From assembly GCF_037042905.1 (NCBI RefSeq), contig NC_087251.1, positions 11,534,001 through 11,598,000 of the forward strand: a DNA stretch of 64,000 nt. Direction: 5' to 3'. The stretch is from Lytechinus pictus (taxonomy: Eukaryota). Every line of letters begins with the position of its first letter. Positions within the stretch are counted from its first letter, which is position 1. The position numbers were made by a program, and so were the translations under genes. The notes under the pieces were generated by a model that was not told the origin of the DNA, did no database searches, and was given only the letters and a program-made list of their open reading frames with translations. This document shows, in pieces, positions 8,211-59,965 of this stretch.

Positions 8211-8434
8211 AATACATAATACTAGTGGCGTATTGAGTATCTACGAAGAAAAGGTGGAAAGGACGAAGGGTCACTTGCCACAGGTGTTACTTTAGTGGAC
8301 AAAAAGGCAGCTCTTTGTCCATTCTGACAATAACCAAACAAGCAACCAATTATTTAGGCACAATTTTAACGCTTGTCCTGGGTGCTTTTTCGCTTGAACT
8401 GCATGGTTTTTTTTTAAGTTAATCTAAATGTTAC

Positions 8435-9038: not shown

Positions 9039-9183
9039 CAGGAGCCGCGGAACGGGTTTAAAAGTGGGGGGGGGGGGCTGACCATGCAAAAAATCACAAT
9101 TGTATGGTAATTATTACGTTTTTGTACACGGTTTTGGAAAAAAAAGTAGGGTGAGGGGCTGAAGCCCGCTTCCGCGGCCCTTG
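9039..9183. mobile_element. Short CAGG-ended MITE with a 5-bp TSD; second, partial copy at about 13482-13640
   Basis: TIR CAGGAGCCGCGGAA ... TTCCGCGGCCCTTG, with ATGTA on both sides (9034-9038 and 9184-9188). Confidence 0.7.
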
Positions 9184-9341
9184 ATGTAACCCGCCCCCCC
9201 CCCAAAAAAAATAGTCATATCCCATTGCTTAATGATTAATGAAACTGAATGAAACTTATAATATAAAAAGAAATGATCGAGTGCTGTTTCCACTCTCCAC
9301 ATACCCACTTACAGTCTTACACCAAAATGATATACCGATAC

Positions 9342-9506
9342 CTTTATCGTCACCGAGGCAGAACGTCCACTGCTCTTCACGACAGAAACGATCCATCGTT
9401 TTAATGATACTCTCGGGATCTCCTCTCTGCGCATGCTCAATGACGTACTGATAAATCCTATCGCACAGTCTGCCATACCATCGGTCGTATAATCCCTTTA
9501 AGACTC
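9342..9506 (-). CDS. COMT: COMT-like coding exon 2
   Basis: TGCAG|GA acceptor after a pyrimidine tract and AAAG|GTATC donor. 165 nt. Encodes (G)VLKGLYDRWYGRLCDRIYQYVIEHAQRGDPESIIKTMDRFCREEQWTFCLGDDK. Confidence 0.93.
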
Positions 9507-10489
9507 CTGCATGAAGAAGGGAGATCATAGAGACAGAAGAAAAAACGATGAGAAACAAAACTAGGAGAAAGGGAAAAGTTTGTATTACATGCATGTAGTT
9601 AGGTAGGCTATACTTTTGTGAAAATTAGAGGGGGTTCTTACTTTTGCAATAGGAAAGCGAAAAAAAAGAATAATGAAATTGTTATGGATATTTACAAAAG
9701 AGGACATCGTAGAATGTAAAGGATACCTCTTTCCTATTTTTGAAAAAAAAATGTTCGCAGTATTCGATCCCCCCCCAAAAAAAAAATATATAAATATATC
9801 AAGAAATCGCCGCGCCTGTATCCTTGAGATGTGTAGGCCTATGTGTGAGGATTATGTAGGGAAATAATGACTCGATCAGTATAGTTCGAGAGGGTAGGCC
9901 TATATACTCCAGGTTGAAAATAATTACCAAAATAAGATGAGTAAAATTCAACGAACAGAGCGATGAAAGTGTAATATAAAATTTGATAAAAACTAATGAA
10001 GTTATTGAATTTCAAAGTTCGGCATTGTGGAAACATGCAGATGCAGGTATATCATGTACATGCCGTCATGAAAGTGTAATAAGATAATTATTTGATATGT
10101 TTATTTGATGTGTGTAAAAACTCTGTTTCCTTGTAATGAAACGAATTTCAACAATCAAGACACAGTCAATCAGGGGAGCCTTTCATGAAAGTAGTTGTCA
10201 GAAATGTCATCCGACAAGTCCCATGTTATCCGACAGATATACTATCAGGCGCGTATCCAGGATTTTGCACACGGGGGGGGGGGCGTCCTAATTTTGGCGC
10301 CCCTGTGAACTTTTAGGAAAATGACCCCCCCCCCCCCGCCAGGCAATCATAGGTGCCTTTTTCATAATCACGTGAAAAAAAAGACAATCGAAGATCACTT
10401 TTTTTAACGTGTTCATGAAAAAAATATCCACAAATATGTTGCAATACCATTTTTTGAAAAGATTTAATGCGACCAGAAAGCATAGAATC

Positions 10490-11163
10490 TTAAAGCAGAA
10501 TAAAACATTTGGAACAAGATAGCTTGTGTGAAAACAGAAAAACAAAGAAACAGATCAATGAAAGTTTGAGAAAAATAAGACAAATAATGAGAAAGTTATG
10601 AGCATTTGAATATTGCGATCACTAATGCTATGGAGATCCTCTTATTGGCAATGCGACAAAGATGTGTGATGTCCACCACTGAACTGGAAATACGTATTTC
10701 CAGTTCAGTGATGTCCACTGATCTCTCACTTGTGAACAACTCTCCCCATTACTTTAGTATATATTTCACTTAAACTGCCTCTTTTATCACATCTATCAGT
10801 AGATCATGTGTTCTTTCTATAGGAGAGCATGTAATACAGATCATGGACCTAATAGGTCCATGTACAGATTTCTAAAGAATACATCATGGATGAAGAGTTT
10901 GTATCACCTTAAGAAAAAGCAAAAAGAGACATTTTGGGGGTATTTTATAGTCGATCAAAGGGAAAGTTGTTCACATGTGACATCACACATCCGTGTCGCA
11001 TTGCCAATAGGAGGATCTCCATAGCATTAGTGATTGCAATATTCAAATGCTCATAACTTTCTCATTATTTGTCTGATTTTTCTCAAACTTTCTTTGTTCT
11101 TATTCTTTGATTTTTCTGTTTCGACACAAGCCAACTTGTTCCAAAGGTTTCATTTCCCTTTAA
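10490..11163. mobile_element. Kolobok-type palindromic MITE (TTAA TSD, AG terminus)
   Basis: TTAA-AGCAGAATAAAAC ... GTTTCATTTCCCT-TTAA with inverted arms of about 200 bp. Paralog at 13795-14388. Confidence 0.8.
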
Positions 11164-15831: not shown

Positions 15832-17759
15832 CCCTCCCCCCCCCCCCCCACTCCGGGGTCGGAGGGACCGCATGCGTGTTCCCAAAATGTCCGGTAACGG
15901 GGTACTTTTTCGCGAGACAAGTCCGGCCCGCGAATTGTAAAAAAGGGGGTGTATTTGACTTTTCAACCGGAAATTTCTTTAAAAAGGGTCTGCTTTTTTT
16001 TTCTCTCTCTCTTTGGACTCCTGAGAAATTTAAAAAGGGGGTTGTAAAATATCTTGAATATCATAAAAAAATTGATCAAATCCTGGGATCAAATTCCTGA
16101 AATTCCTTCTCGAAAGCTAATTCAGGATTATTTCATTTTGAAAGAAAAACATAGGAAATATAGTCCCCCCCCCCCCCCGGGAGTCCCCCACGATCGACTC
16201 GATAGTCGATACGGACTTCTCGAAATCTGCGAGAGAGATAACCCCGGGTATCCCATTGTGATTCTGTTTACAAGTGATCACGGAAAGTATGAAAAGTTGA
16301 AACTATTAACATGACTTACCATTAACAAACATTTATGTCATGGGATTTTCATCTTTTCTTGTTGTTTCGTATGACTGCATTGAGTTCTGAGATCTCATTT
16401 TAAACATCAAAATATATTTCCTTAGGTATAGAGGGTTCCCACAAGCAGTCATATTGGAGGACAAAAAAAAAAAATGTGCATCGGACTATGAAAAGTTATT
16501 GTTTTCATTGTTTTGCTATTGTTTTGTCCTCCATCATGACATCAGGGAACCTCTATTATAATGACAGCTTACCTGAGATGAAAGGGGGGGGGGGGGGGAG
16601 GTTGGCTGTCTTGAGATAGGGGGTTGGAATGAGAGCTCACCTGAGATAGGGGGTACATTGAGCAGTGTTCTGGATTTAGGGGGGTCTTCAAGGCAGGAAA
16701 AGCCCGCGAAAGGGGGGGGGGGTTCAGAAATTTTGGCAGACATGAGATAGGGGGTGATTTCAAAGGAAGGGATCGAGCATAGGCCCCGGGCATAGGCGTA
16801 CCCTAAATGACACTGAGTGGGGGGGGGGGGGAGGGTAAATACTAGGATATACCCGCTTCCCTAGATTAATCGGGAGATTAATTAATGATATCATTTAATT
16901 ATCGTGTTTTTCTTTGCCAAATCCGCGCGAGAAAAAAAAATCCTGAAAAAAACCCGGTTCCATGACATTAATTTGACGTCATGGAACCCAATGGGGAAGA
17001 TGTCAAGATAATATAGCGCTGCCGGGTGGGGGGGGGGGGGGGCGATGGGGGTATACCACCTAGTTAACAATTCGAAGCTCCTTGGTAACGCTAAAGAGAC
17101 CGATCGAGGTACCACATAAAGATAAACTGTATCTCTATGCATCGAGGTCAGTTGTGGGCCGCGGCACGCGAGTGTCCGCGGGTCAGGTGAATGGGATTAT
17201 GAAGCTGCTTACATAATCTGCTGTGCAAACCCTTTACTCGAGTTAAGGGTCTGAATGTGCTGCCTACTCATGCCTTGTGTACTGAAGGCCCTCCCCCGGT
17301 GGGAAGGGGGCACTTCCATTGACAAGTGAATACCATGTGCGACCGTGGGGTCTCGAAAAGCACCCTAAACAAGCATTTTCCATATTCTGAAAATGCATTA
17401 ACAAGTATTGGCATGCGAAACCCTATACCCTTGGCAAGTATTGGAAACAAAACGATGCGCGGGACGCGCCTCTTGGCAAGTATTCCCTGAATTGAATTAC
17501 CCCTAAACAAGTACAGCGATATTTAAATTGTTATATGTCACGGACGTCGGTCGTCGGTTTTCCTATAGGCCCCATGCACCTCCCAAACCTTGCGCAAATC
17601 GTACTCTGAACACGTACCAGTGTTGACTGTTGGGGCAAAAAGTACATCCTTCATATAAAGCATTTTTTATACCCTCGCAAATTTGACCCTAAACACGTAC
17701 CTTTTTTATTATTATTTTAGTGTTTTCGATACCCTTATTACGTTACTGTACCCCATATA

Positions 17760-32667: not shown

Positions 32668-33548
32668 TTAATAAGGGAACGCAGTAAACGAGCTGAAGTT
32701 TTCTTCAGATTAAGAACTAAAAACAGATCATTCGAAGCAATATAACCATGAAGAATGTCGGCATAGAACTAAGCAACTGTTGCGAGCGTGAACTGATTTT
32801 TGTAAAAATTATTTTACAACCTAAAATTTGACACTTTCAACAATTTTTGCAATCATGAACATGATGGTTATCTAATCAAACTTAGATTTGAAATCGGACA
32901 TTCCATGTAGTTTTTATATATAATCATGAAAAGGAAGGGTATCACTGAATGATGCGAACGCGAAGCGCGAGCTGAAAATTTTGCATATTTTCACGTGAAA
33001 ACTAAATATTTTTATATATTTTTACATTAAAACAAACTCAGTTTCTGCATCTGTAATCGAACAAGCTGTGTATCTCAATAAACATTAATCCGAGCGCGAA
33101 GCGCGAGCTATTTTTTAAATTTTTATATTTGACTTGAAAACTAAACGTTTTTACATGATTCTATATCAAAACAAACTCGGTTTCTGCATCGGTAATTGAA
33201 CAACATGTGCATCTCATTAAACACAATGCCAGTGCGAAGCGCAAGTTGAAAATTTTGGGATATTTTTACTTGAAAACTAAATATTTTCCATGTTTGTACA
33301 GGTTGATTTAATTTGAAACAAACTCAGTTTCTGCACCTGTAATTGAACAAGATGTGTATCTCAATAAACATAATGCGAGCGCGAAGCGCGAGCTGAAATT
33401 CCGATTTACCATCTCGAAAGGGAACATTTTAAGCACTGTCCAACATGAAGGAGAATGGTTCCCTGTCGGTACCGAAGTATGAAATGACAACTCTTGATAC
33501 TTTGACCTGAAAACTGAACTTTTTCACAATTTTTATAAGAACAAACTT
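32668..33548 (+). repeat. Copy 1 of the ~880-bp direct duplication flanking the LINE
   Basis: Runs ttaataagggaac ... ttttataagaacaaactt and is nearly identical to 36833-37712. Confidence 0.95.
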
Positions 33549-36500
33549 TTTTTTTCTTTCTTTCAATAGCATTTATTTAATCATCTGAATATACATTTCA
33601 CATTTACATCAAAATACATTAAACATAATCAAATAATACATACGGAAGACGATACAGAGATTTACCAGTACAGTTTATGTTCATATCTAGTCTCCTACGC
33701 AATTCTGATTTAAATAAAAACGTTAGATTTGATGGTCTATTGTCTACTTTCCTGTAATTACGTAGCAAAATTGATTTATACACAGTCCAAAAAGCTATAT
33801 TAATGATATCATCTAGTTCTTTGTGCTCGTTATATTTTATCAAAAGATCGACATCGATAACAACGTGTTTATTGAAGGCTTTTTTAATCAACCAAATTAT
33901 ATATGACCAAAAATTTTGATTCAATTCACAAGTGATCAAAGCATGTGTTATGTCTTCTTCTACATGGCAACTAAATTACAATAAGCATCTTCGCTTATAC
34001 GCCATTTACATAAATTTCTTTTCACAGGCAATATATTATACAGTATTTTTAAATTAAATGATCTAAGTTTGTTTTCTTTTACTGTTAACAAGTTTCTCTC
34101 GAAACAAATATTCCAGCCTATACTCATTTTCGAAATATTTTCCCAAAAGAAACAACAATGTGAATTTGACCCTTCAAGACGTATAATATAATTGTAAAAG
34201 TATCTTGAAGGTACATGGTCCAGACATTTTACTGAGTTACCTATTTTTAGTTTGGGTATATCAAGATGCGCATATCTTTGTAGGTTCTTATTAAAAGATT
34301 TTGAGAGCCAAATTTTTGGTATAGCTTGCCTCAATTTTGAATAATAAAAAATGACAGATCTTTTACTGTTTTTAAATTTCAACATTGATGAAATTTCGGA
34401 TACATCTTTAAAGCCTCCATCCACATTCAAAATGTCTTCCAAGTATATTATTCCGCTATTATACCATTCCTTGAAAAATAGTGGTGATTTATTAAAAACA
34501 ATATAATGATTAAACCATAGAATATTTTCAGCCTCATGTTCTTTTCTGAATAATATTTCTTTATCAATCAGACTCCAAGCTCGAATTATTTCAACATAAA
34601 AGGGAGGTATTTTCTTGTCAAACAATGGGGTAACATTGTGAACCCGAAAGTCGCTATTCAAGATTAGATTAAGAGTTCCAAAACGCTCAAACCAATAATT
34701 TCCAAGTGTTTTCAACATAGAATTTACCTCATTTGTTAACCTTCCTAACCACCTTAATCTGAAACTGACTTCTTTCTTTTCTATATCAACCATTTTCAAA
34801 CCACCTTGTGTGTAATCTTTGATATGTTCATCACATCTTCTAACCTTTTCCATTCGTGAATTCCAAAGAAATTTGAAAAACATTCTATTTAGTTTCTTAA
34901 TAATTATTGATGGAACATAATTAAACATAAGCAAATGAACTACTTGGCTTAATGCCAGGCATTTCACAATCGTCACTCTACCATATAATGTCAGGTTTCT
35001 TTTTCGCCAATTATCGAGGAGACGCATTTTCTCTAACTTATTTTCCCAATTTGCACTGTTAGCAATTTGCTCATTATTAGAGATAAAAAAGCCCAAATAT
35101 TTTACCGGGTTTTCTGCCCATGTCAGGTCAAGGTCTTGTATCACCCATCGATTTTTTTTTCTTACCTATCCATAAGAGTGCAGTTTTTTCTTTGTTAATT
35201 TTAGGACCGGCTACACTACCAAAATCTTCTAATTCAGTTAAAATAATTTCTAATGAGCTATCGTCTCCAACAAAAAAGGTAGTATCATCTGCATACTGTA
35301 ATATCTTTAACTCAAAGTGACCATTGGTTTCATCAAAACAAACACCTCTTATAGTATCATTTTTACGTATTTTGTTTGCAAAGAATTCAGCTGCAATCAC
35401 AAACAGGAGTGCCGAAAGAGGACAGCCTTGCCGTATTCCTCTTTGCACTTGAAACTCTTCTGTTATCCTGCCATTTACAATTACTGAACTTACTATCTGA
35501 TTGTAAAGGACACAGATCCAATTGCGAAATTCATTGCCAAAATTCAACTTGTCTAAGCATTTCATTATAAAAGATATATCAATACAATCAAATGCTTTGG
35601 TGAAATCAACCATCATGACCGCACCTTCAACATTTTTTTCATGCATGTAATCTATCATATCTTTAACAATTCTTACATTGAAACCTCCTAATCGTCCTTT
35701 AATATACCCTACTTGTGTTTCCATAATAATACTCGTTAATATCTTTTGTAATCTTAATGCTAGAGCTGTTGCAATTATTTTATAGTCGCAATTGAGTAGT
35801 GTTACTGGTCTCCAGTTCTTTAAATCGTCACTGTTTCCTTTTTTATAAATCAAAGTTATGAGACCTTTTCGTTGTGAAGGCGACATCTGTCCATTACTGA
35901 AAAATTCATTGAATGCATATTTCTTCCCAGAAAACTTGATAAATTCGATAGGCAGGCCGTCCATACCTGGCGCTTTATTCCTCTTCATAGAGAAAACAGC
36001 CTTTTTGCATTCTGCCATATTCATTAAGCCTTCACATTTATTTCTTTCATCTTGACTAAGCCTTTTCACATCTTGTGAGAACACATATTTATTCATATGA
36101 TCTAAATTAATATGATTTCTCTTATACAGATCTTCATAATACAGTTTAACTTCTCTTAAGATATGTTGTTGCTTAGTAACTACATGTCTCTTCCCATTCA
36201 CTCTTAGTTGAGTAATAAGCTTATTTTCCCCATTTTTTTTTCTCAAGGGATAAAAAATAGTTTGTGTTTTTTTCCCCTTCTTCCGTCCATCTGATCCGTG
36301 ACCTTACTGCGGCCCCTTTACATTCATTTATGTATAACTTCTCTAACTTTTCTTTAACTTGAAGGTATTTTTCTTTTGATATATCATTATTTCTATTGTC
36401 TAAATCACATTCATATTTGGCTAACTTAATTTCCAAAAGTTCTTTTTCACGTTTTGTTTTCCTTTTTCGTTTGCTAAATTTCTGAGAAAATTCTCTACAT

Positions 36501-36840
36501 TTAATCTTCAGAATCTCTAGTTTCATCATAGAGGTATTTCATTATCACTGAGACATTTTGATATAACATTTCTAATTCCTGTCTTAAAGTTATTGTCACT
36601 AAGGTAGGAAGTATTTAGTTTACAATATCCTGGACCTTTAATTATATCGCTCAATCTTAATTTCAAAGAAATTGCATTATGATCTCCCTTATCAACGGGT
36701 CTAATGTCTGTAGAGACAACTTTCCCCAACATGTCCTTACTTATTATCCAATAGTCTAATCTGGATGCAATATCCATATTCATATTTCTCCAAGTGAATT
36801 GTCTTACATCTTTGTTAAATTTTCTCCAGACATTAATAAG
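33547..36840 (-). mobile_element. 5'-truncated L1/Tx1-type non-LTR retrotransposon with a frameshifted ORF2
   Basis: Endonuclease C-terminus (VWRK, FTW, SRLDYW, DHNAI), RT (KAPGMDGLP, NWRPVTLLNCDYK, GIRQGCPLS, QYADD), a C-terminal Cys/His remnant, AATAAA and an A-rich tail at 33547-33577. Confidence 0.95.
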
Positions 36841-37712
36841 GGAACTCAGTAAACGAGCTGAAGTTTTCTTCAGATTTAGAACTAAAAACAGATCATTCGA
36901 AGCAATGTAACCATGAAGAATGTCGGCATAGAACTAAGCAACTGTTGCGAGCGTGAACTGATTTAAAAAAAATTATTTTACAACCTAAAATTTGACACTT
37001 TCAACACTTTTTGCAATCATGAACATGATGGTTATTTAATCAAACTTATATTTGAAATCGGACATTCCATGTAGTTTTTATATATAATCATGAAAAGGAA
37101 GGGTATCACTGAATGATGCGAACGCGAAGCGCGAGCTGAAAATTTTGCATATTTTCACGTGAAAACTAAATATTTTTATATGTTTTTACATTAAAACAAA
37201 CTCAGTTTCTGCATCTGTAATCGAACAAGCTGTGTATCTCAATAAACATTAATCCGAGCGCGAAGCGCGAGCTATTTTTTAAATTTTTATATTTGACTTG
37301 AAAACTAAACGTTTTTACATGATTCTATATCAAAACAAACTCGGTTTCTGCATCGGTAATTGAACAACATGTGCATCTCATTAAACACAATGCCAGTGCG
37401 AAGCGCAAGTTGAAAATTTTGGGATATTTTGACTTGAAAACTAAATATTTTCCATTTTTGTACAGGTTGATTTAATTTGAAACAAACTCAGTTTCTGCAT
37501 CTGTAATTGAACAAGATGTGTATCTCAATAAACATAATGCGAGCGCGAAGCGCGAGCTGAAATTCCGATTTACCATCTCGAAAGGGAACATTTTAAGCAC
37601 TGTCCAACATGAAGGAGAATGGTTCCCTGTCGGTACCGAAGTATGAAATGACAACTCTTGATACTTTGACCTGAAAACTGAACTTTTTCACAATTTTTAT
37701 AAGAACAAACTT
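36833..37712 (+). repeat. Copy 2 of the ~880-bp direct duplication
   Basis: Matches 32668-33548. Duplicate 60-aa ORFs 33308-33490 and 37472-37654 differ at one residue. Confidence 0.95.
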
Positions 37713-38870: not shown

Positions 38871-39522
38871 AATTAGTGGGGGGGGGGGGTGTCGCCCCCG
38901 GTCCTCACCCCCTTTTTAGCGACGGTCCTGCCCTGATCGTACATGTGAATATTTTCATGGACATCTTCATGGATTTCTCCAAGAATCAAGTTCCCTAGCT
39001 ATTAGTCAAGAAAAATACATAAATGTTTATAGGTTGTTGCCCTTATCATAATATCCTGGTACTAAGTAATACTGTATAGTGCCATTGTTTTGGGTTTCGG
39101 TGAAAAGTGCATAGATACAGGCTATATCTTAATCCAAATCAATAAAACAAGAAAGTCACTACTAAATGTAATTGCCATTTTAAAAGAAACTCTTCCCAAT
39201 ATCAACCTCATGTTTATACTTAGACAGCTGGCAGCCGTCTGTTTCGAGGAGTTTTTTAACATTTTATTTTTTTTCATTTCTCTGAGTGGAGCCAACGGAG
39301 TTTAGCGGAACGACCAACATAACAGAGACCGAAGCTTTTGGTCTAGGATATACTATGAGTATAAATGAAACCATTTATGATTTGCTATTTTCAAATCACG
39401 ATAGACTTTTTTTTTTCATTCGTTAACTTCCTCCGTTCGATCTCGCTGTTGGTCGCTAGCTAGCTAGACAGGGTACGCTATCGATATCGCTAGCTAAGCT
39501 AGATCAATTTGTCGCATCACAC

Positions 39523-42434
39523 CATAGAGATGTATACTAGTAACGCTAGAGGGCGTACTTCGTCAAATCGCTGTGATTACGTGGAGACCGTCCGCCATTG
39601 CTCGATAGGTATTCGCAGCCTGCCATGCGCGTACAGTACCTATGGGGCATGTACACGGATGAGCACAGAACATGACAAATTGATGACATATGAGCACGAA
39701 AGCATATGGAAAAGCAAAATTGTAAATATTGCACTGGATTAAAGTTCAAATACAACAAAAATCTAGCAAAACTGAGGTCAAAAGGCCTATATAGGCCTAT
39801 CTATAGCGCATAATATAGGCCGATACAGCTATAATACAGGCAAACGATTTAAAGTCCCAATTGTTTTTGCTTAGGTAAAATTTCGATACATTAATATGAC
39901 TTCTATTTTCTAATGATTTGGAAGAGATGAATATCAAAAATAACATTTAGGCCTAGGTCCTGATATATAAATTTAATGTGTTTTAATATGATTTGATGTA
40001 CATTAACCTAAGAAAATTCATAGGCCATATCACAGTGTCTGATGCATCTGAGACGCTGTATCGAAAAAAAAACCACGATTGTATTTTTATAGTTCATAGT
40101 TTCCTAATTACTATTATGCTGATTGCTGATAATTTATTTCTTCACTTTAGATAATTGTTATAATTCATTTTCCATATATATATCTACACAATAGGGCCTA
40201 TAATAACTCGATCCCTTTTCCCCATGTCTTACACGCTGATGTAAACCAACATCACAAAAACTCGCGAATCATAAAATGACTTTTTATTGATATTTGGAAA
40301 TGATTTACGCATTGATTCAGTTAAAAATTGATGATTTAGATTTCCTTTGCTGGCAACCATCCCATCATATTTATAAATATGTATATAAAAGTATACTTTC
40401 TTACTTGCGATCAATGTATAGAAAAGTTTGTTGACAGCAAAATTTGCATATCAAATGCGCGCATGCAGTCGTACAATTTTGCAATGTACAGGAGGCCTAA
40501 TGGGGGGTTGGATGTTTATGTACAGTGTTATTGCCTTGCAAACATTTTAAAACTTCGGAGAGTAAACAAATCACAATGCGCAAAACAATTTTACTTTGAT
40601 TTTCTGGAAAGTATAGACTTGATTCTCCCCGGCTGAAAATATGCTGATCGGCAAACTGGCTGAAATATTTTGTTTATCGCCGTTGTTTCTGATCCTATAA
40701 TGATTGGACCAATATCATGTGAACAAATCAAGGATAGAATAATAAGGAGAGGAAGAAGGGGGAGAAGGAGAGAAGAAAAGGGGCGGGATTATGATATATA
40801 ATTTGTATTATACTATAAAGAATATTATTACTACTGCAAGAGTGTATAAAACTAATATCATGAAAGACATCAATGCAAACTTATCATAATTATGAAAACG
40901 GTTGCAAAATTGTGAGTACTAAAACCAAACATAATTATGAAACAATAATATTGCAAAAGTGACAATACTTGGAATAAGATATTAAAGATCCTAATTTAAT
41001 CTCAAATTTGATACCTGCCTTGAAATTGTGTTAATTAACTGTGTCTGTGTCGCTTGAATAAATGAACTTTATGGCAAATATTTGTAAGCACTGGCACCGG
41101 CCTAACATATAAACAGATAAACACGCGTTTTGAATATCCAGTTTTGTTTTTCATTTTAAAAGTATAACTGAATTTGATTTTCTAGTTTTCTTCCTTTAAT
41201 GTCATTTGCTGGCCTATGGACCTGAGTTTGGTTATTCGATCAGTTTTTTTTTAAATAAGATTTCCATGGATGAACAAAATTATTATATTATGTTACGGCG
41301 TCGCGGAATGATTTTGAAAGTGATGGGGTGTATAAAATCACAATCATTTATTATGTGTAATGTTCATTTTCATTTCAGGGAGGGGTCCGGTCGCGCCCCC
41401 TGTATTTTATTTTGATCAGTATGTTAAAGCGAATTTGCTTAGGTGTGTTTGTTATTTTAATTGCACACACGGCCCCTAAAAAGCGAATTAAAACAAATCT
41501 AACTTAAAGTGAAGGGAATTAAAACTGTCATTTTTGAAAAGTTTGAACAAATTAGGCTATATTCTCGACATTTTAAATCAATATTTTATTTTCGGGCCAT
41601 ATAGGCCTGCAGATTTTGGGGAATTTATTATGTTCCTATAAGAACAAAATCAGCACGTTCACCAAATAACACGAATTTCAACATTGATGGTGTAACGGGA
41701 GGCTCACCAAGAACAATAATGAGATGCCCTTTAATAGCGCATGTAGATCAAAACACTAACTTATACAGAATTATTGTACAACTTAATATATAAAAATGAT
41801 AGGCCTATATTTCATACAAATTGAAGCAAGTTACATATCATGTAGGCCTATATAGAAATTACAAAATTATATCCAACATAAACATAGAATCAAAGGACGT
41901 ATATGTGGGAAGGATGGAAGGAGGACGATGCAGTTAAAGGTAGGGAAATCCAGAGAAGGGCTAATTCACTGCAGTCTTTTGAATTAATTGTCAATCTTTC
42001 TATTAATGTCCGCTGTATGTTTTTATTTTTATATGATTGTTTATATGATAGTATATCAACATTGTTATCTATTACAGGCCTATAAACGGACAGGTAAATG
42101 CAAATTATTTAGAATTTCATCCCGAGAAATCAGGTTTTTAAAATGCCAAATTAATAGCATAATCCCCATGTAATCACTCTAATAGTGTATTGAGATGCAA
42201 TTTGTCATTCATATTTTCGATTTTTATGAGGTTGTATTCTTTTCTTCAAGATAAAGGCCGGAGACGGCACCCCTTTTCACAGCGTTACAACGCACGAGCT
42301 ATGGGTACATCCGGGTACTTTTGCGAATCTATACCTATCGAGCAATGGCCGCCACGCTCCACACAATCACAGACGTTAAGTACGCGCGCCTATGGCGACT
42401 CCGCACTCTAGCGTAGTTAGTATACATCTCTATG
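39523..42434. mobile_element. 2.9-kb non-autonomous P-superfamily-like element
   Basis: TIR CATAGAGATGTATACTA (17/17, extending to about 33 bp with 4 mismatches). 8-bp TSD CATCACAC (39515-39522 and 42435-42442). A second subterminal inverted motif GCCATTGCTCGATAGGTAT lies at about 39594 and 42331. Confidence 0.88.
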
Positions 42435-42508
42435 CATCACACAGATACATGATCACGACCGTGTTCTCTCTTACTTATTGAGCTGGAAAGGAAAGATAAA
42501 TAATAACG

Positions 42509-42600
42509 ATGTCTGTGAATCAAATTGAGATCATAGAAATAGACAAATGGATCGAAGAGAATAAGAAGTTTTTTCTCCCACCTGTGTGCAACAAGATGAT
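42509..42600 (+). CDS. HAAO: 3-hydroxyanthranilate 3,4-dioxygenase, coding exon 1
   Basis: Encodes MSVNQIEIIEIDKWIEENKKFFLPPVCNKM(M), with the HAAO W.EEN...F.PPVCNK motif. Donor AT|GTAAGT, phase 2. Missed by the ORF track. Confidence 0.93.
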
Positions 42601-42674
42601 GTAAGTGAATAGGCTCAATCGGTCTGCAAAAATGAGGGCAAGCCCCTACCGGCTACCGGTACGGTACGGTTATT

Positions 42675-43246
42675 AAACCCAGGGAGCTCCCGCCCGCGCA
42701 GCGGGCGGGAGCCCAGGAGCTTACCGTGTATTTGACCATAGGCATAGTCACCGGACTAGGGTGATTTATGGTCTAAATATTTCTCCAAATGAATTGTGAA
42801 AACAGAAAGTATACAATAACCACGATTATATGGATGAAGGTCTAACGAGTGGCAGTTTCCTGACATCTGGGCACAGACTGGAACCTCAAAAAAACGAAAA
42901 CTTAAAGTTCTCTCCTCTACCCCAGTCCCGACCCCAGTCTCGATCGGCCATTTTGTTATGATAATTGATATGATTCATAACAAAAATTGCCGATTTAGAC
43001 TGGGGTAGAAGGAGAGAACTTTTCGTTTTTTTGAGGTTCCAGTCTGTGCCTCGATGTCAGGAAACTGCCACTCGTTAGACCTTCATCCATATAATCGTAG
43101 TAAGTGCATAATTTCTGTTTTCACAATTCATTTGGACTTGGAGAAATATTTAGACCATAAATCACGCTAGTCCCGTGAGTATGGTCAAATACACGGTAAG
43201 CCCCTGGGCTCCCGCCCGCACAGCGGGCGGGAGATCCCTGGGTTAG
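42675..43246. mobile_element. ~570-bp foldback (whole-element palindrome) with terminal GC hairpins
   Basis: Arms of about 280 bp, aacccagggagctcccgcccgc... / ...gcgggcgggagatccctgggtt, with a central spacer of about 14 nt. Confidence 0.85.
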
Positions 43247-43717
43247 ATATAACCTTGACTTGTTCTCAGTTATATGTTAGGGCCTATAGTATAGTATATT
43301 TATATTATAATCTTGTGACTTTTGTGTGGCAAAAAAGGGTGGCAATGTTTGGCTTATTTTCACTTTTTCTTTGGGACAAATGCTTCATTTTTTTTACACT
43401 GACAGTTTCCATTACACCTATTCGTCATACAACTTGGCTCTTAAGTAAATTTGATTCTTTAAATTATTATTTTCTTAATTAAAAATAGAGATAAAAAAAT
43501 GACAATTTTCTTGCCATATTACTTTCCACCAATAGAGGGCGTACACAAAAATATGCCCAAAAATCAAGTTTTTGAGCGCTCTGGTGAATACAAAAATTAT
43601 TCCCAAGTTACTAATGAAAAATAAATTGCAACTGTATGAAAATTAGTAATTTTGGTTACAAAAGTGATATTTTAATGATTTTTTAAAGCGTGTGCTCTGT
43701 ACAACATTGGCATACCA

Positions 43718-44486
43718 TAGTCTGTCTAGACCAAAAGCTTTAGTCTCTGTATTTTGGTTGTTCCGCTGAACTGCGTTGGCTCAATCGCCAATACATAGAC
43801 TGAAGAGCTTGGAGGCCCGTACGTACAGACAACGTATTAGCAGTAACGTTAGTTCTAACTTACTCTAGCATTCGGCGAAAACCCGATATTCCGATCGTTT
43901 TTTGTACATAAAATGTCACATTATGAAAAAGAAATCACATCCATATTTACGAAAAAATGTTTAAAATTCAGAAATATTGTACCTTAGACCGCAGTTACCG
44001 CTAATTCCTTTAAAATGATGATCGAAACATCGTCATCTTCGATCCTTTCGTTGGTCAACGTAAGTTGCCATCTTGGACGACGTCATCATCCTTACAGACG
44101 TATTTACCAGTCGCTATATATCGAGATTTGTGCCGCTGCTTTGCGCTTGTAGATGTGCCTTGATCGCATTGATTGGCCAGGATATAGAAAATTTAATCGG
44201 AAAGCCTTGATAAAAGCACAACTCGTTGAACGTAAAGGACAACAATGCACGGCTGCCATTTTTTCCTTTCCGGCAGAAAATTTAAAAAAAAGGAATAACG
44301 GGGGAATAACTCATCGGTAACGTATATTTTCGACATTTTTGTTGAATTTACATAGTATCAAAAGAAAGATTAAAGTCTAACGAAAATAGTGGGCCTTCGT
44401 TCAAGATAATATAATGTCATTTAGAATCTAAAAAAAATTAAAATGCAGGCTCGCACTAACACACTACCGTCGGTGAATGGGGACTA
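43718..44486. mobile_element. TAG...CTA (Academ-like) non-autonomous element; an inverted end of the same family lies at about 39290-39355
   Basis: tagtctgtctagaccaaaagctttagtctctgt...cgttggctc resembles the reverse complement of 39290-39355. The right end (gacta) is tentative. Confidence 0.5.
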
Positions 44487-46664
44487 CAGTAAAATGTCAG
44501 AAATTGTTGAATAAATCCCCGGAAACGACGGTTATTCCTGTCTAACCCTAGTCCTACCTGTAGATTCCCCACAGGCAGGATGGTTGCAGTGAACAAGTGG
44601 GCAGTATCCTGACATCGAGGCACAGACTGGAACCTAAAAAAAAACGAAGTTCTGTCGCGGTAGCTCTTCTTTCAGAATTCATATAGTCTAGTTCTAGACG
44701 ATTTTAAACGAATCTATTTGCACCACGATATAATATGTTCTATTCCGTGCGTACGCCCAGCCGAGTGTGCGCGCAAAACCGAGAACCTGTACTCCGAGGA
44801 AAAATCGTCTAGACCAGTTGCTCTGCGGTGACGTCAGAGGTCAAAGGTCAACGGACGAGTGCTTCATAAATATGCATGAGTTACTTGTCAATCTCGCCGC
44901 GCCGAACAACAGTGCAACGTTGTTTACGTTTTGCACGTGTTATCAGCTGTGTGCATGCATTGTACACATGGGATTGATGTAATACTCAGTAGATCTATGT
45001 GATATGAATACATGTACACGTATCATACGAAAGTTTGAGATAGTTCATTATTTTTAAGGCTACAAATAGACATTTCATTGTTGGGAAATTACTGTAACAT
45101 GCATAGGCCTATAGTTATTTCACTCAATGTGCATATCTTGGTTAAATCTGTGGGTATGATGTATACCATCATGATATATGAAAGAAGGTGCTAATGTACC
45201 AAATTTCAAACTTCAAAACAATACAGACTAGTTTTTCCACTTTATTCAGATGGAATAATTAATATATACAAGTTTGAATGATATATTTTATATTCTTCTT
45301 CATCTACACATGTAATTACATAGAGGTAATTTGTCTTAGTATGGGTATTGAAAATTAAGACTCATAAATGTAAACTCTCATTCTTGTGAATGGATCACAT
45401 CACGGTACATTTTACTGTGGGCACTTGTAAATATATCATTTTCAATGTCTTCTTTACATATTTCACTGTCAGAGAGTATGACAAAAAGGGTTGAGAAGTA
45501 CATGTACTTTGTACAGATTAGTACAGAGCTGTGAAAGGGATAAGGAAAACAGAATAAAAATCATTAATGATTTTTAAAAGTAGATTAATCTCAGGCTCAC
45601 AAAAATTTTGTATGCGGATTTTGATGCGTGCAGTGCATCAGATTTTGGAAGAAAATCTTTGCAGTTGTCCTTGGAACTTTTAGTTTATTTATTTACTTTA
45701 CATGAACATCTAGATAATGCGTACAATTATTTTTGTTGTTCAGCTACATTATAATCTAGCTACATGTAGCCAGGAAATGATATTGCCAATGATGTACATG
45801 AAGCCTCTTCTATAAATAAAGGCACCTTTTCTCATTACATTTGAAGTACAGTATTTATGAAATATATTTTTGCAGCCATTATGAAAGAGCATTGTGTTCA
45901 GATCTACATGTAACTTGCCAGTTAATTAAATTGCTAGTAACTATTCCATTGCAGTGTAAGTTTTACATGTAGTTTGCATAGGCGGATCCAGCTTTTGGCG
46001 AAAGGGGGGGGGGGGGGCACACTGCCGAGCGGCGCACATAATTATTTTTGCACTTCACCGGCGCCATAAAAGAAAATGTTGAAAAAGGGGTAAAGTCTGA
46101 CCCTGTCAAATGCTCTTTTCAAAATGTAGGATTTTCAGTCATGCCATTTTGCATGACCACACGCAGATAATATTTCCGGGGGGGGGGGGGGGGGGGGTAA
46201 CTCGAACATATTTTTGAAAAAATAAAAACGATAGAGTAAACGGTCCGAGCTGCTCAATGGGGCGATTATTTTTTTACAAGTGTAATAAAAGTATTTGGTG
46301 CACATCTCACATTTGCACATTTTTCATAGTTTTCATGAAATGTTAAGGGAAAAAATGTGTTTTCACAACAACTGATCGGGAATTTGCCCCCCCCCCCCTT
46401 CCCCCTTGCTGCGTACGAACATTCCCTGAAGTCCACTTAAACATATATCATTATAACAGAAAATATACATGAATATAAACATACTGTATAATCTTTCTAA
46501 GACATATATAGAGAGAGATTGAAAAAATTATTAAAGAAAGAAACAAACAAATTATGCATGTTATGTGCGATTTCAAAATCTCGTGTACTAACCCTTTTAT
46601 TGCGATGAGGCAAATACTTGTGTATATTAATTGAGATACAAGTTTTTTTTTTACTATATATACA

Positions 46665-47430
46665 AAGGGGCGTCGATCCTTTTTTCAGATTGGGGGGGGG
46701 GGCAAAATCATGAATCAACTTTCCAAAGGCGCTCGATCACACAAAACAAACTCACACACACTCATATGTATATATATATATATATATATTTCAGCGCGAG
46801 CTGAAATTTTTTAGTATACTGACCTGAAAACAGGAAAAAGGTGCCTTTTAAAGACTGTTTGTAGTAACTCATGAGGAGAATACATATCTCACTACACAGA
46901 TAATGCGAGTGCCGAGGGCGAGCTGAAATTTCTTTATATTCTGACCAGAAAGCTTGATATCTTATATGCATTTTGGTACCAATGATTAAGATGGGTATCT
47001 AAAAAAGACAATAGATGCGAGCGCGAAGCGCGAGCTTAAAATTTTAATATTTCGATCTGAAAAAAATGAGTTTAATGGACGTTTTTAAAAAAGAACAAGA
47101 TTATATCCAACAAAAGATTATTGCAAATCGAAGCGGGACTTCTTTTGAGGTTTAGAACTGAGAACGGGACATTCTATTCACCTATGTAATTATGAAAAGT
47201 ATGGGGTTTTGCTACAGAAATGGTGCGAGCGCGAAGCGCGAGCTGAAAATTTTTATATTGCAATCTGAAAAGCGGACAATTTGAGCACGATTTTAAACAA
47301 AGAACGAGTTGTGTAGCTCAATCTTGCTTGCTGATTTCTGTGTAACATTACCATCTTATTTTATTTTTGTACATGCGGAATTATTGGGGGAGGAGGGGGT
47401 GGGCAAAACGATATATGATCGACGCCTCTG
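46665..47430. mobile_element. Non-autonomous hAT-like element with the GCGAAGC satellite
   Basis: TIR (A)AGGGGCGTCGATC ... GATCGACGCCTCTG. 8-bp TSD TATATACA (46657-46664 and 47431-47438). Confidence 0.8.
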
Positions 47431-48239
47431 TATATACAATGATACTACATCATGAATCATTCGGAATACATCACCAATCCAGGTTTATATATTATCATTC
47501 AATTTTTCATGTACATGATGTATACATCATGTACAGAATTTAGTATATATTGTGATGCTTTTCACTAAATCTAATGCAATTTGTAATGATGAGTAATTTT
47601 ATCTAATTAATTTGATGAAACTGGATATGATGGTTATGACCTGAATTCAGAAAGAGATCCTTCAAGACAGAGCTTTGGAAATAGTTCTCCTGTTTTACAG
47701 GTATCGTTATCTTTGTTTTTAACTTCTTCCTGAGTGATCAGATGAATAATATTTAACTTAATGGAAGATGAAAATAAATCAAATTTTGTGGGGTAAACAT
47801 TTAAACGTTAAAACAAAGATATTGACAAACTGTATTAATACATTGAAAATGATATTTAGTGGTTTAAGGTCTAACGAATATACGTCTGGTTGCGTAATTA
47901 TACACTCCCTGTAATAGCAACGGGTTTTAGCAAAGTTTTGGACTAAAATATCGAATCATCTTCATAAAACACTTTAGTAGCCGTCTTACACTAAAGGCCA
48001 TACAGGTGGCACAACGTGGAATGTGTAAAGAAGAAAAGTGACTGACCTTTTTTTATTAAAGCATTGGAAAATAAGATCAAAATTAAAGGATTTGCTCTAC
48101 GCTTTTGTATGATTCTGGGATATTTTTCAATAACAAAAGTTTAGATTTTATGACATCTGTGTGAAACTCCCCCGCCCCAGTCCACTCTGTAAGGGCATGT
48201 GATAAGCTTTGTTATGACCATTCAACAATAAAATGTATA

Positions 48240-49022
48240 ACCAGGTGCCGCTGACCATTCTTGACCGGCGCCGATCTAGATTTGGTTGGCAATAGGCCCT
48301 TCTTCATTATTCTACCGGCGCCTAATTATTGGAACCAGGGGACGCTGATTATTCTTGACCGGCGCCGATTTAAATTTAGGTGGCGCCGGTTAAGACAAAG
48401 GCAGCGCCGATTTGTCTTGACCGGCGCCGATTTAGAACAAGTAGTGCTGATTATTTTTACCGACGTCCAGACGTCACGTAAGATTCAGGCAGCGGCAAAT
48501 GATCGACTGGCGCCGATTTGGAACCAGGAGGCGCCGATTATTCTTGTCCGGCGCCGATTTAGATTTAGGTGGAGCTGATTATTCTTGATCGGCGCCGGTT
48601 AAGACTCAGGCAGCGCCGATTTATAATCAGATGGCGCTGATTATTCTTGACCAGCCCCGATTTAGAATGGCGCTGATTATCCTTGATCGGCGCCGGTTAA
48701 GAACTCAGGCAGCGCCGATTTTTCTTTACCAGCGCCGATTTATAACCAGATGGCGCCGATTATTCTTGCCCGGCGCCGATTTAGATTTACGTGGAGCTGA
48801 TTATTCTTGTCCGGCCCTGATTTAGATTTAGGTGGCGCTGATTATCATTGATTGGCGCCGGTTAAGAACACAGGTAGCGTCGATTTTTCTTGGCGCCGAT
48901 TTATAACCAAATGGCGGTGATTATTCTTGTCCGGCGCCGATTTAGATTTAGGTAGCGCTGATTATTCTTGATTGGTGCCAGTTATATGCTGGCAGCGCAC
49001 AGCTGATAATTTTTTACCGGCG
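48240..49022. repeat. ~20-22-bp minisatellite with a GGCGCCGATT core
   Basis: More than 30 units with a small set of recurring linkers (attcttgacc, tagatttaggt, aagactcaggc, tataaccagat). Confidence 0.85.
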
Positions 49023-49634
49023 AAGTTGTTGGGAAAAGGGTAGTTAAAAGAAAAGATAAGGAAGATGATATGACATTATTGTGCTTTGCTGGGGGATAGT
49101 ATTTCCTTTACTGTCGCTAATATTATATCAGTGTATATTTTTTTTAAGCGGCGCCTTTTCTTTTCTTTCCTTTATTTTTATTTTTTCAAGCAGCGCCTTT
49201 TCTTTCTTTTACTTTTCTTTTCTTTTTTTTTTTTGGGGGGGGGAGCGCGCCCCCTGCGCCATCCCCCTGGATCCGCCACTGGTTTGTGATTTTTTTAATT
49301 TAGAAGCTGTATTATTAAGAAGTAAATATCTTAAAGTCACTATAGCGTATCTAAGGGGGGGGGGGGCAGTCTGCCCCCCTGACGAGCCACAACCCATGCA
49401 AAGGACGTATCCTGGACCCCTGACGAGATTGAAAGGCCTTTTTTGCCCCCCCCCCTGACGAGCTTGAAGACCTTTATTGCCCCCCCCCCCCCTGACGAGC
49501 TTGAGCTTGAAGACCCTTTTTATTTGCTTGTCAATTTTTTTTCAGGTACGAAGTTCTTTATTTCACGGTGATTGAATACTTTTTTTTGTTTTGTTTTGCC
49601 CCCCCCCTGTGGAAAATTCTAGGTACGCCACTGT

Positions 49635-50860
49635 TTCAATTCAATTCAAATTTATTTATTTCACTTCCATCAAACAAAAACAAATTGTGTACCATATATA
49701 AACATACATTTTTGTATCCGTTGTAAACAAAATTAATGATACATCTGTTGTGAAAAAACACTTAGACAATTTGGGCAACACATTGTAGGTTTTAAATACG
49801 TATACTATTTTTCAATAGAAATTAAATTAAGATGGAAATGGAGGGACCCACTAAAAAGCAATGCTTGTACAATGTGGGCCCCTCAAGAAATAGATAACAC
49901 AACAAATAACAAAATAACAAAGTATAAATACAGATAATCAAATGAGAAAAAATGAATAAATGAGAGGGAAACACTCACAAAATAAATACAAAGTTATCAA
50001 AAATATATAGTTTGATAAAGGACAAAACAACTCGTCCTCAATATCTACCCTTCCCCACCCCCCCCCCCAGAAAAAGAGAAGAAAAAAGGGGAGAATGCCC
50101 TGAGAAGATGGATGGGTGCTGCTGTACGTAGATAGAACACATGCCTCAAGCAAACTGGATTCAATGATGTGTATAAAAGGAGAAAAAATATATAAAATAA
50201 CCTGGAAAGAATATAATGCACAAAAAATAATGATTGATGCCGTAAACAAATAACCGGTAGGAAGGCGGATAAGCGGACAGGAGATGAGAAAATAGAGGAG
50301 AGGATATACACAATAATGAGCATATCTGCATATGAGAAGGACTTGTGTCAGATTTTTTTTTTTTTAATAAAAAAAGGATAATAATTATTTTATGTTTTAA
50401 TTGTGGTGGTGGTGATTTTTTTTTTACCTGATTGCTAAGAAAGCATGAATGCTTGTAAGCAAGCAACCAGAGGACCGACGGCTTAAGGTCCCCTCCGAAG
50501 GACCTTAATTGTAATTGTAATTGTAGTTTAAAGTAATAATGATGACTTGACAGAGATGATGAATTAAACTTAATTTGGGAGTATATTATAAGGTTTTAAT
50601 AGAGATAATTTGAATTTAGTCTTAAAAGAGTTCAAAGATTTTGCATTTGTTATATCATTATGAAGTGAGTTCCATAACTTCGGTCCATCATATATAAATG
50701 CGTTCTGAGCCCGCAACGTTCTTAAAAGTGGTAAATGAAATTCACCCAATCGCCTTGTTGGATAGTTGTGAATGGATTGATTTTTTGGAAACATTGAATT
50801 AAATACATTTGGGAGGTTGTTGTTGTTATAGTTATACATAAACTGACCGAGATTAAAGTG
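49635..50860 (-). mobile_element. L2/CR1-group LINE 3' end with a long UTR and an (ATTGA)n tail
   Basis: ORF 50570-50839 reads LPNVFNSMF..N.SIHNYPTR...GPKLWNSL...SLNSFK. AATAAA and the tail lie at 49635-49660. Confidence 0.85.
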
Positions 50861-51098
50861 ATTAAAGTGATATACTGTACGTACTAATATGACCGACTTG
50901 TTTCGAGTTTTGTTTTACCGCATTCAGGTCATGGTTCTTTATGATTTTTTTTGTTCCAGAGAGAGTTTACTCAGTACACTTCAACATATATATGCAAAAT
51001 GGAGACAATTACTGTATTCTTGTTCTACTGCAAATGCCAATTATTGTTTGGTCAGCCATACTATGAAAAAACTGTACATTTCAGATCAAACTTGCCAG

Positions 51099-51695
51099 TT
51101 AAAGGACAAGTCCACCTCAACAAAAAGCTGACTTGAATAGATAAAGAAAAATCAAACAAACATAACTCTGAAAATTTCATCAAAATCGGATGTAAAATAA
51201 GAAAGTTATAACATTTTTAAGTTTCGCTTAATTTTTCAAAACAGTTATATGCATATCTTAGTAAGTATGCAAATGAGGGGACCGATGACATCATTCACTC
51301 ACTATTTCTTTTGTATTTTATTTTATGAAATATTTTGATTTTCTCGTCATTGCCTGTGAAACAAAGTTGTCTGTGAAACAAAGTTTCATTCCTCCCTGAA
51401 CACATGTAATTCCATTATTCTCACATTTTGTGATTCGAGCAAAGGGGTACTAATTGTCGAATTCGTAAAAATTGAAATATTGTATTATTCAAACAATAAA
51501 AAACACAAGAAATAGTGAGTGAGTGACATCATCGACTCTCTCATTTGCAAATCACTGAGTTGAGTATAGAACTGTTTTGTGAAAAATAAGCAAAACTTTA
51601 AAATGTCATAACTTTCCTATTTTACGTCCGATTTTGATGAAATTTTCAGCATTATTCATGTTTGATTTTTCTCTATTTATTAAAATCAATTTTTT
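51099..51695. mobile_element. Kolobok-type MITE, right end truncated
   Basis: Starts TTAA-AGGACAAGTCCACC. Inverted paralog of 54054-54664. Confidence 0.75.
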
Positions 51696-53112
51696 CTTTA
51701 CCATATTACTGCCATGTGAACAAAGGAAGCAACTCTGTGGAACAAGTTTATGAGGAAATGAGTAAAATTGTCATTGTCATTTTACATGTGGAAATATAGA
51801 ATTTCTTGTTTTTTTAAAAGAAACTTGGGGCCATGTGACTTCAATTAAACTGGCATCATGAAGAGCTTACATAATTAACCCAAATCAAGGGGGATGGTCA
51901 AGTTTGAAGGATAAAAAGTTGCTTCCCTCCCATGCAGTAGGAACACTCAAGAAGACATCGTGGCCTCGGAGGAAACTTTTTAATTCGAGAGAACTTTGTT
52001 CTGTTGGATCTTCAAAGTCGTTGTTCCCAACTGTTCGGACATAGGCCTATGCAGGATGGAATCTCTGATAGAATGACGTTCATTTTCCGTCGCCATCACA
52101 CCATATAAAAAAAAACGAAGATAAGTGATCAAGACCTGTATGCACACTATAGCTGATTTGGTAAACAAGCAAGAAACTGAATTTGGAAACCGCGCGCAGT
52201 ATACAACACACAATACAACCAGGGAGTCTCCCTGATACAACAGCACGATACAGTATACACAAATCTATGGCTTATGTTGTGCTGCTTTGTGCGATCTGAT
52301 TGATTCTGTAATCCATATACGATAGTCTACGCTTATAAACCCTATTGTAGGTATCAGGGGAAACATACACGATACGATTCATTTCTGATGTTTTTGTGTG
52401 TTTAATTTGATTTCTTTTATCAATTATTTATAACAAAAAGTCCTTTCTTAGGTAACTGATATTCATTTTATCGGTAGATCACACCATATTTCTCAACCGA
52501 GTAATCTTCCCTGCTGTTAACAAAGACTAGCGGCTGAACGGGAGGCGTTTCCACTTTTAACGACTTTCCCTCAAAAATCTGAGGGAGTGACGTCACCGCA
52601 GAGCAACTGGTCTAGACGATTTTTCCTCGGAGTACAGGTTCTCGGTTTTGCGCGCACACTCGGCTGGGCGTACGCACGAAATAGAACGTATTATATCGTG
52701 GTGCAAATAGATTCGTTTAAAATCGTCTAGAACTAGACTAGAATTCATAGCAAAATGGCCGATCGAGACCGAGGGTGTAGGGCGCATGCGCGAATTTCAC
52801 CGAGTCTATATGTGCTAGTGCTATAGCCTCGGTCTCGATCGGCCATTTTGTTTTGAATTTTGAAAGAAGGAGAGCTACCGTGACAGAACTTTTCGTTTTT
52901 TTTAGGTTCCAGTCTGTGCCTCGATGTCAGGATACTGCCACACGATAGACCTTCATCCATATAATCGTGGTAAGTGCATAATTTCTGTTTTCACAATTTA
53001 TTTTGCTAGATATTTTGACCACAATCTACCCTAGTCCCGTGAGTATGGGTAAATACACGGTGAGCTTCTGGGCTCCGGCCTGCTTCGCGGGCCGGAGCTC
53101 TGGGTTAGATTT

Positions 53113-54741
53113 ATCCAAGTCCTCTCGTGGCTGAATTCATATCCCTGCAAAATCTCATGAGTTGTGAGACTTTTTTCTCAAAGAATTTAACCATTTTCTC
53201 CTTGAGTAAAATTGTACCATGGAAAAGAGTCTTTTATATTGGTTATTTCTTTTGAATAAAATGTTATGATAAATAAGTGAATTTCAGGCCTGAAAAGATG
53301 CCTAAAATAAAAGTCAAACAGAATTTTCTTTAGGTTTTCTCTTGCAAATTGTGTAAAATTTTGTGTTTTAGGCACAAACATTATTTATATATATCAGAAA
53401 GCTCAAACTTTGTACTTTCATACAATGTGACTCTTGATACGTGACACCTTTTAGATGGGTCAGCAGCCAGCTTTTTCCATCAAGATGCAAGACATGATTT
53501 CTGAAATTTCTGAGTAGGTCTAGCATAAAATCTATAGTTCTGATTGGCTGAATAAGGTTTCAAAACAACAGGCGTGGGTAATTTGAAGAGATTACCACAT
53601 GGTGAGTGTGACCTTGCTGAGGCCAAGTGTGGAGAACATTGGAATTTGCGTGGGTGTGTGGTCTCTATGACCAATCAGAGCGCCGTATTCTAGTTTTTGA
53701 GCTGCTATTACTTGGCCTATGCAAAGCTGGCTGCTGACCAATCTAACATATCTCTTGTTATAAAAATATAAAAGCTTAGATCTTTAGCTTTATCATAATC
53801 TAAAAATCATTTGGGCTCAAGCAGAAATTAAGTGTAAAAAGAACATTTTTTGTTGCATGAAAATAATTATTTTGTTTCATGTTTTAGATCAAAAGTTTCC
53901 CCTATATTACAACATCTTTTTAAAAAATCCAAACACATGACCTGAAAAAATGATTTTTCTTCTTTATAAAGATACCAAAAACATGAAATTTGGTCAATAT
54001 TTAGAGCAGCAATGGCCGAATAAAAAGAGGTGTTTTGGTCCACACCAAGCTAATTAAAGGTCAAGTCCACCCCAGAAAACAGTTGATTTAAATAAATAGA
54101 GAAAAATCAAACATAAATAACGCTGAAAACTTCATCAAAATTGGATGTAAAATAAGGAAATTATGACATTTTAAAGTTTCGTTTATTTTTCACAAAACAG
54201 TTCTATGCTCAACTCAGTGATATGCAAATGAGAGAGTCGATGATGTCACTCACTCACTATTTCTTTTGTTCTTTATTGTTTGAATTATACAATATTTCAA
54301 TTTTTAAGAATTTGACAATTAGGACCTCCTTGCCTGAACCACAAAATGTTAAAATAATGGAATTCCACGTGTTCAGGGAGGAATGAAACTTCGTTTCACA
54401 TGACATCGACGAGAAAATCAAAATATTTTATATTTCATATAATAAAATACAAAAGAAATAGTGACTGGATGACGTCATCAGTCTGCTCATTTGCATATCG
54501 ACCGGATGTGCATATAACTGTTTTGTGAAATTAAGCGAAACTTTAAAATATTATAATTTTCTTATTTTAAATCCGATTTTGATGAAATTTTCAGTGTTAT
54601 GATTGTTTGAATTTTCTCTTTTTTATTCAAATCAGCTTTTTGTTGGGGTGGACTTGTCCTTTAACAATGCAAAAACACTCTAGTCATGAATATCACTTGG
54701 ATAAAAGCTACTTTTTGAGGGCTTGCTGACCGACTGGGCTA
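53113..54741. mobile_element. Paralog of the 18555-19612 element, interrupted by a Kolobok-type MITE
   Basis: Colinear similarity on both sides of the 54054-54664 insert. Confidence 0.7.
54054..54664. mobile_element. Complete Kolobok-type MITE
   Basis: TTAA-AGGTCAAGTCCACCCCA ... TGGGGTGGACTTGTCCT-TTAA. The empty site, a single TTAA, is visible in the paralog at about 19520. Confidence 0.88.
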
Positions 54742-59058: not shown

Positions 59059-59140
59059 GCACAGTGAAGGGCAGATGAAGTCTTTCTTTGTTGGTGGTCC
59101 AAATGTCAGGAAAGATTATCACATAGAAGAAGGAGAGGAG
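59059..59140 (+). CDS. HAAO: HAAO coding exon 2
   Basis: TACAG|G acceptor and GAG|GTACG donor. 82 nt. Encodes [27 protein letters not shown], with the VGGPN.RKDYH.EEGEE iron-ligand motif. Confidence 0.96.
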
Positions 59141-59881: not shown

Positions 59882-59965
59882 CTTTTCTACATGAAGAAGG
59901 GGGATATGTGCCTTAAGGTTGTTGAGCAGAACAAACATAAAGATATTCACATCAGAGAAGGAGAG
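59882..59965 (+). CDS. HAAO: HAAO coding exon 3; the gene continues beyond the window
   Basis: TTTCAG|CTT acceptor and GAG|GTAAC donor. 84 nt. Encodes LFYMKKGDMCLKVVEQNKHKDIHIREGE. Confidence 0.95.

Follow-up and report, generated by a model that had tools for sequence, protein, structure and literature searches.

A young, non-autonomous and probably P-type transposon just upstream of the HAAO start codon in the sea urchin Lytechinus pictus

The HAAO locus

The window, the whole 64-kb (64,000-nucleotide) stretch of Lytechinus pictus DNA that was analysed, contains exons 1–3 of HAAO on the forward strand and a transposon just upstream of the HAAO start codon (Table 1; positions are counted from the first letter of the window). 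The best named homologue is the L. pictus HAAO protein P0001: exon 1 encodes its first 31 residues (31 of 31 identical), exons 2 and 3 match the residues that follow, and both exon 1 and exon 2 score above the Pfam 3-HAO cut-off. An L. variegatus protein in the same cluster as P0001 differs at three exon-1 residues. Because an in-frame stop lies shortly upstream, we take the ATG at 42509 as the start codon; intron 1, which follows exon 1, is 16,458 bp long. The exon-2 methionine is the first residue in P0053, which is one of two HAAO models for L. pictus, and in P0031 from Diadema; either the first exon varies or the annotation has a gap here, both being possible.

Several other features share the window. 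O-methyltransferase exons with Methyltransf_3 matches, COMT-like by eye, occupy 5608–9624 on the minus strand, divergent from HAAO. A broken non-LTR retrotransposon (32668–37712), with an RVT_1 match at about 33960–36930 on the minus strand, is flanked by 881-bp direct repeats (98.4% identity, units of about 137 bp). Right after the exon-1 donor comes a foldback element of about 580 bp (42671–43249), with partial copies at 44592–44656 and 52854–53116, and an 8.06-kb element with terminal inverted repeats (TIRs) of about 150 bp (TAG...CTA ends) and a 9-bp target-site duplication (TSD) lies at 44684–52740, also in intron 1.

Table 1 Features of HAAO, the transposon at its start and the upstream flank.
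Feature	Position	Strand	Remarks
MITE-like high-copy repeat, 125 bp	39221–39345		Hundreds of reads, many flanks; borders the patch upstream
CpG-rich patch; proximal promoter that may have been displaced	39421–39514		Composition
TSD, left copy, 8 bp, CATCACAC	39515–39522		Perfect
Non-autonomous TIR DNA transposon	39523–42434		2,912 bp; AT-rich non-coding interior
Left TIR	39523–39551	+	First and last 17 bases of element identical (17/17); 26/29 matching, 3 mismatches within the first 29 bp
Left subterminal inverted repeat, 42 bp	39571–39612	+	Begins 49 bp from element end
Right subterminal inverted repeat, 42 bp	42331–42372	−	Begins 63 bp from element end
Right TIR	42406–42434	−	Boundary backed by other flank in run X9
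TSD, right copy, 8 bp, CATCACAC	42435–42442		Perfect
Native leader, 66 bp	42443–42508	+	Between right TSD and ATG
HAAO coding exon 1	42509–42600	+	GT donor next; Pfam 3-HAO
HAAO exon 2	59059–59140	+	Pfam 3-HAO
HAAO exon 3	59882–59965	+	Match to P0001; bounds approximate

Structure of the element

The transposon just upstream of the HAAO ATG is real and has both TIRs and an 8-bp TSD; the ATG lies 74 bp beyond the end of the element and 66 bp beyond the right TSD. The TIRs, the perfect 8-bp TSD, the end at 42434 and the ATG at 42509 had all been described in an earlier reading from sequence only (hereafter the sequence-only reading), and each was reproduced here. The right boundary is independently confirmed, since a contig of run X9 departs from the window immediately after 42434 and continues into a different flank. 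When the window was simulated 15 times with a fifth-order Markov model, no combination of an 8-bp TSD with a 12/12 TIR arose, compared with ten cases in the real sequence, of which five are TA microsatellite, three lie inside the long TIRs of another element, one is a 34-bp scar and one is the 39523–42434 element itself.

Internal to the TIRs, the subterminal inverted repeat is placed asymmetrically, its right copy being set 14 bp deeper than its left copy (offsets of 49 versus 63 bp and 72 versus 86 bp). The left copy contains a YY1-like box at 39592, of which a degenerate counterpart lies at 42344 in the right copy. The longest ATG-initiated frame in the element spans 85 amino acids; of its 61 stop-to-stop frames with a length of 28 amino acids or more, none matches Pfam (E 0.01), and an Rfam search of the element returned no match. 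The element thus lacks a transposase of its own, which an autonomous P element would carry. No second copy is present within the 64-kb window.

Copies, age and mobility

At least nine public runs from three studies contain 66–72% of the words of a query of which 79% was element; no RNA run is among those listed as containing query words. Four runs were compared with window positions 38900–42670: X1 and X9, available as contigs, and X12 and X13, available as raw RNA reads. The seven listed X1 contigs differ from the element at 4 positions in 2,789 bp (leaving aside one more contig, an eighth, that is diverged) and the five listed X9 contigs at 10 positions in 2,944 bp (leaving aside three that are short or diverged), so that the interior is tiled by sequence of 99.7–99.9% identity, or 0.14–0.34% divergence. 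X1 and X9 agree with each other against the window base at 39966, 40987, 41673, 41823 and 42236, which implies about five private substitutions (~0.2%) in the window copy since it left the family. Together, the near-identical contigs and the different X9 flank after 42434 demonstrate that the element is mobile and present at more than one locus; it is also very young, and, judged by how little it diverges from the other copies, it was inserted at HAAO very recently. X12 and X13 reads over both element ends differ from the window copy at many positions and point to older related subfamilies.

Among the records listed for the four runs (4/4), none bridges either junction of the HAAO insertion and none shows an empty-site joint. 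As no listed record bridges a junction, the absence of an empty allele is uninformative about polymorphism, and it is from its youth that we infer the insertion to be polymorphic.

Run X9 is labelled as another organism. It contains the element at 99.7% identity and a depth of about 9. Neither unique flank nor exon 1 is covered, and the 125-bp repeat, on which X1 has a depth in the thousands, is matched by just two small records; almost none of the query words occur in two further, smaller runs from that sample. Recent sharing of the element between species by horizontal transfer is an unlikely reading of this pattern, which low coverage, fragmentation, filtering or contamination would also fit.

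A scan of public sequence with the 17-mer of the TIR returned two viral and 40 metagenome loci. By BLAST, none of the 42 resembles the element beyond 21 bp. A second TIR was sought at 16 of the 42, the other 26 repeating three flanks (24 of them a single unchecked flank, the rest duplicates of two flanks among the 16), and one of the 16 has a partial second TIR with four mismatches and no TSD. All 42 loci were put down to chance, and no transposase partner emerged from the scan. Within the window, a lone end on the minus strand at 17127–17139 has the same first nine bases as the element TIR, and a TIR/TSD scan of the window found no partner for it. We found no description of the family in the literature searched, though it may be catalogued in Repbase or Dfam; as far as these searches show, it is a new non-autonomous family of a familiar type.

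Superfamily assignment

The layout of the ends makes a P-superfamily origin likely. The TSD, perfect over 8 bp in this single insertion, falls within the 7–8 bp of that superfamily; the TIR starts with CA(T), as do those of Drosophila P and zebrafish Pdre2; and subterminal inverted repeats are present with unequal spacing, as in P, a feature also found outside it. In hAT elements, 8-bp TSDs, short TIRs and subterminal repeats are found too, so membership of hAT or of another superfamily with 8-bp TSDs, a matter separate from that of the promoter, would fit these features, and the element has no transposase tying it to P. The hAT terminal consensus, however, has a purine at position 3, where the element has T.

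A further argument comes from a short form of the element. One X1 contig (depth 4) consists of 16 left-end bases, two letters and 18 right-end bases; this 36-bp form, seen in a single contig that shows neither flank, resembles a P excision scar and fits repair after a 17-nt staggered cut, and could alternatively be an abortive gap-repair product. Hairpins form on the flank during hAT excision (PMC5499845), and such a cut should not leave 16–18 TIR bases; the 36-bp form, unless it is such a gap-repair product, would therefore disfavour hAT, an assignment that we regard as doubtful. The short form in X12 and X13 (seven and four reads, respectively) joins 21 and 23 bp into 44 bp, which exceeds a 17-nt scar.

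The corresponding properties of P are documented in four papers: in the fly, P makes 8-bp TSDs, carries internal as well as terminal inverted repeats, spaced differently at each end, and is cut with a 17-nt stagger (PMC7776569); the stagger is described again for fly P, which starts CAT (PMC5466332); zebrafish Pdre2 also begins CAT (PMC10983969); and TSD lengths are 8 bp for P and 7 bp for 1360 and Galileo (PMC3698922). The designation 'P-like' in the sequence-only reading is accordingly strengthened by the layout of the ends and by the scar-like short form, and for this element, which has no transposase of its own, the class is likely.

Two palindromes of other families occur elsewhere in the window. 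The one at 10677–10710 is perfect over 34 bp (17 + 17), has an 8-bp TSD and shows the same scar geometry; the other, at 10842–10862, is 21 bp long and its TSD measures 7 bp. Both are likely P/Galileo-type excision scars.

Composition around the HAAO start

The upstream patch and both element ends have 9–10 CpG per 100 bp (10 at the right end), placing them in the top 1.4–2.8% of windows. At a threshold of at least 8 CpG per 100 bp, however, 38 zones covering 7.4 kb of the 64-kb window are equally rich, and CpG richness was dropped as evidence for a promoter. The CpG-rich patches pointed out previously are thus present but not distinctive. At 39479 the patch contains a DRE-like octamer, one of two in the window, the motif being one from Drosophila. 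There was no sign in the four runs that the patch is a high-copy repeat. The 125-bp repeat has a partial second copy at 43727–43782.

Intron 1 has CpG-rich zones of its own at 42599–42766 and 43786–44177, and in the second of these we noted by eye presumed YY1-, CRE- and CCAAT-like words. The sea-urchin enhancer paper PMC8527612, in the portion available, gives no core-promoter motifs.

Transcript evidence and alternative readings

The raw RNA runs X12 and X13, of which about 6% each was searched, have no exon-1 reads (2/2 runs), which is not evidence of silencing, as reads may have been filtered out. X1, on the other hand, has depth on the exon-1 bins and no record beyond 42670, suggesting that it derives from RNA and that its coverage, of about 43, is confined to the exon. 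If so, the 5′ edge of its exon-1 coverage lies at about 42442–42477, as judged from bin means of contigs, which cannot show starts. The mapping of the start by RNA that had been called for has accordingly yielded an approximate coverage edge in X1 and nothing on exon 1 in X12 or X13. On the same premise, depth in the X1 patch bin is fully accounted for by the TIR. At 42236 the whole X1 depth comes from contigs that differ from the window copy, with none carrying its base. For want of patch signal and of the 42236 allele in X1, transcription starting within the patch, or far inside the element, is mildly disfavoured, and the data, from animals that may or may not carry the HAAO insertion, weakly suggest that HAAO transcripts begin near the insertion point.

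Two proposals of the sequence-only reading gain little from these data. That 39420–39520 was the original promoter finds little backing in CpG content and no signal on the patch in X1; that HAAO is driven from the element end is unsupported, X1 having no window-copy allele at 42236. Promoter capture, in which HAAO on the filled allele would be transcribed from, or activated by, the CpG-rich right end, could draw on the YY1-like box in the subterminal repeat and on the X12 and X13 reads of related copies that accumulate on both ends. Those reads, however, are highly different from the window copy and so come from other loci; the RNA signal is from animals that may not carry the insertion; the motifs are common to both ends, as transposase-binding sites would be; and a start upstream of 42345 would add three leader ATGs (42345, 42392 and 42432). 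We consider capture improbable. Very improbable, in our estimate, is the broader proposition that the family is a live deuterostome P-type system with ends that act as outward promoters and are swapped in at gene starts, including that of HAAO.

The leader itself has an upstream ATG at 42449, opening a 10-codon uORF, and a pyrimidine run at 42464–42479 followed by a weak possible splice acceptor AG at 42481–42482. Were an upstream non-coding exon spliced to this AG, the element would lie within an intron of the 5′ UTR and close to its branch region; the pyrimidine run leading to an AG 26 bp before the ATG and the upper X1 edge of about 42477 close to it would suit such an arrangement. The AG is nevertheless preceded by G, which is rare at acceptors, and none of the listed records has a joint or loose end at 42483; we consider an intronic site quite improbable.

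Somewhat unlikely, but possible, is that the insertion is a harmless neighbour that changes little, with the core promoter and start inside the 66-bp leader and regulation from intron 1. The X1 edge permits a start within the leader, a TCT-like pyrimidine run lies at 42465, the upstream ATG at 42449 would otherwise fall in the 5′ UTR and intron 1 also has CpG-rich zones. Against this, the native sequence left upstream amounts to no more than 66 bp, which is short for a full proximal promoter, and promoter insertions in the fly typically reduce expression (PMC1592238).

A model for the insertion

With a probability of roughly 45%, we tentatively favour a P-type insertion at the HAAO start that has produced a segregating allele of somewhat lowered expression, not an adopted promoter. 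A P-superfamily (THAP-type) transposase would mobilize the element in trans; the element would have landed in accessible promoter chromatin, either on the site where HAAO transcription starts or some tens of bases from it; the native upstream 100–170 bp would thereby have been shifted 2.9 kb from the start, and displacement of the native promoter is plausible; and the filled allele would segregate with somewhat reduced HAAO expression. The X1 coverage edge near the insertion point fits insertion at a promoter, and because the element is young, a segregating reduced-expression allele is what would be expected. In Drosophila, P insertions are frequent around promoters (PMC7776569), and those in Hsp70 promoters typically reduce expression and segregate (PMC1592238); promoter insertions there sometimes reach high frequency (PMC1592238), which counts against the lowered-expression reading.

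Discussion

The insertion is genuine but belongs to a well-known class of event, in which an element, here probably of P type, lands at the 5′ end of a gene, as in Drosophila; it is probably segregating. Should it do so, the allele would offer natural cis-regulatory variation in de novo NAD synthesis that is easily genotyped. Should an active transposase exist for the family, L. pictus, in which stable transgenesis has been achieved with Minos (PMC11361634), would gain a vector of its own that possibly seeks out promoters. And if the X9 organism is a distinct species, recent horizontal transfer of a non-coding element would have been documented.

Among known systems, the element shares its 8-bp TSD, short TIRs and subterminal repeats with non-autonomous, Ds-like hAT elements, from whose terminal consensus its end bases depart. 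Nor would the flank-hairpin cut of hAT (PMC5499845) lead one to expect TIR–TIR remnants. With the non-autonomous members of the P superfamily, namely internally deleted Drosophila P, zebrafish Pdre and the BuT5 MITE, it has in common CAT...ATG ends and an 8-bp TSD, as well as a TIR followed by an unequally spaced subterminal repeat and a non-coding interior, as those elements are described in PMC7776569, PMC10983969 and PMC3698922. From the fly P and Pdre2 its TIR diverges after the first 3–4 bases, and its 2.9-kb length equals that of fly P by coincidence only. The absence of a transposase remnant in the interior is like BuT5 and unlike simple deletion derivatives (PMC3698922). In its position, the insertion resembles the P insertions in Drosophila heat-shock promoters (Walser et al. 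2006, PMC1592238), being a probably P-type element in a proximal promoter region that would be expected to segregate and to reduce expression; it differs in being a single insertion in a single sea-urchin sequence at a metabolic gene.
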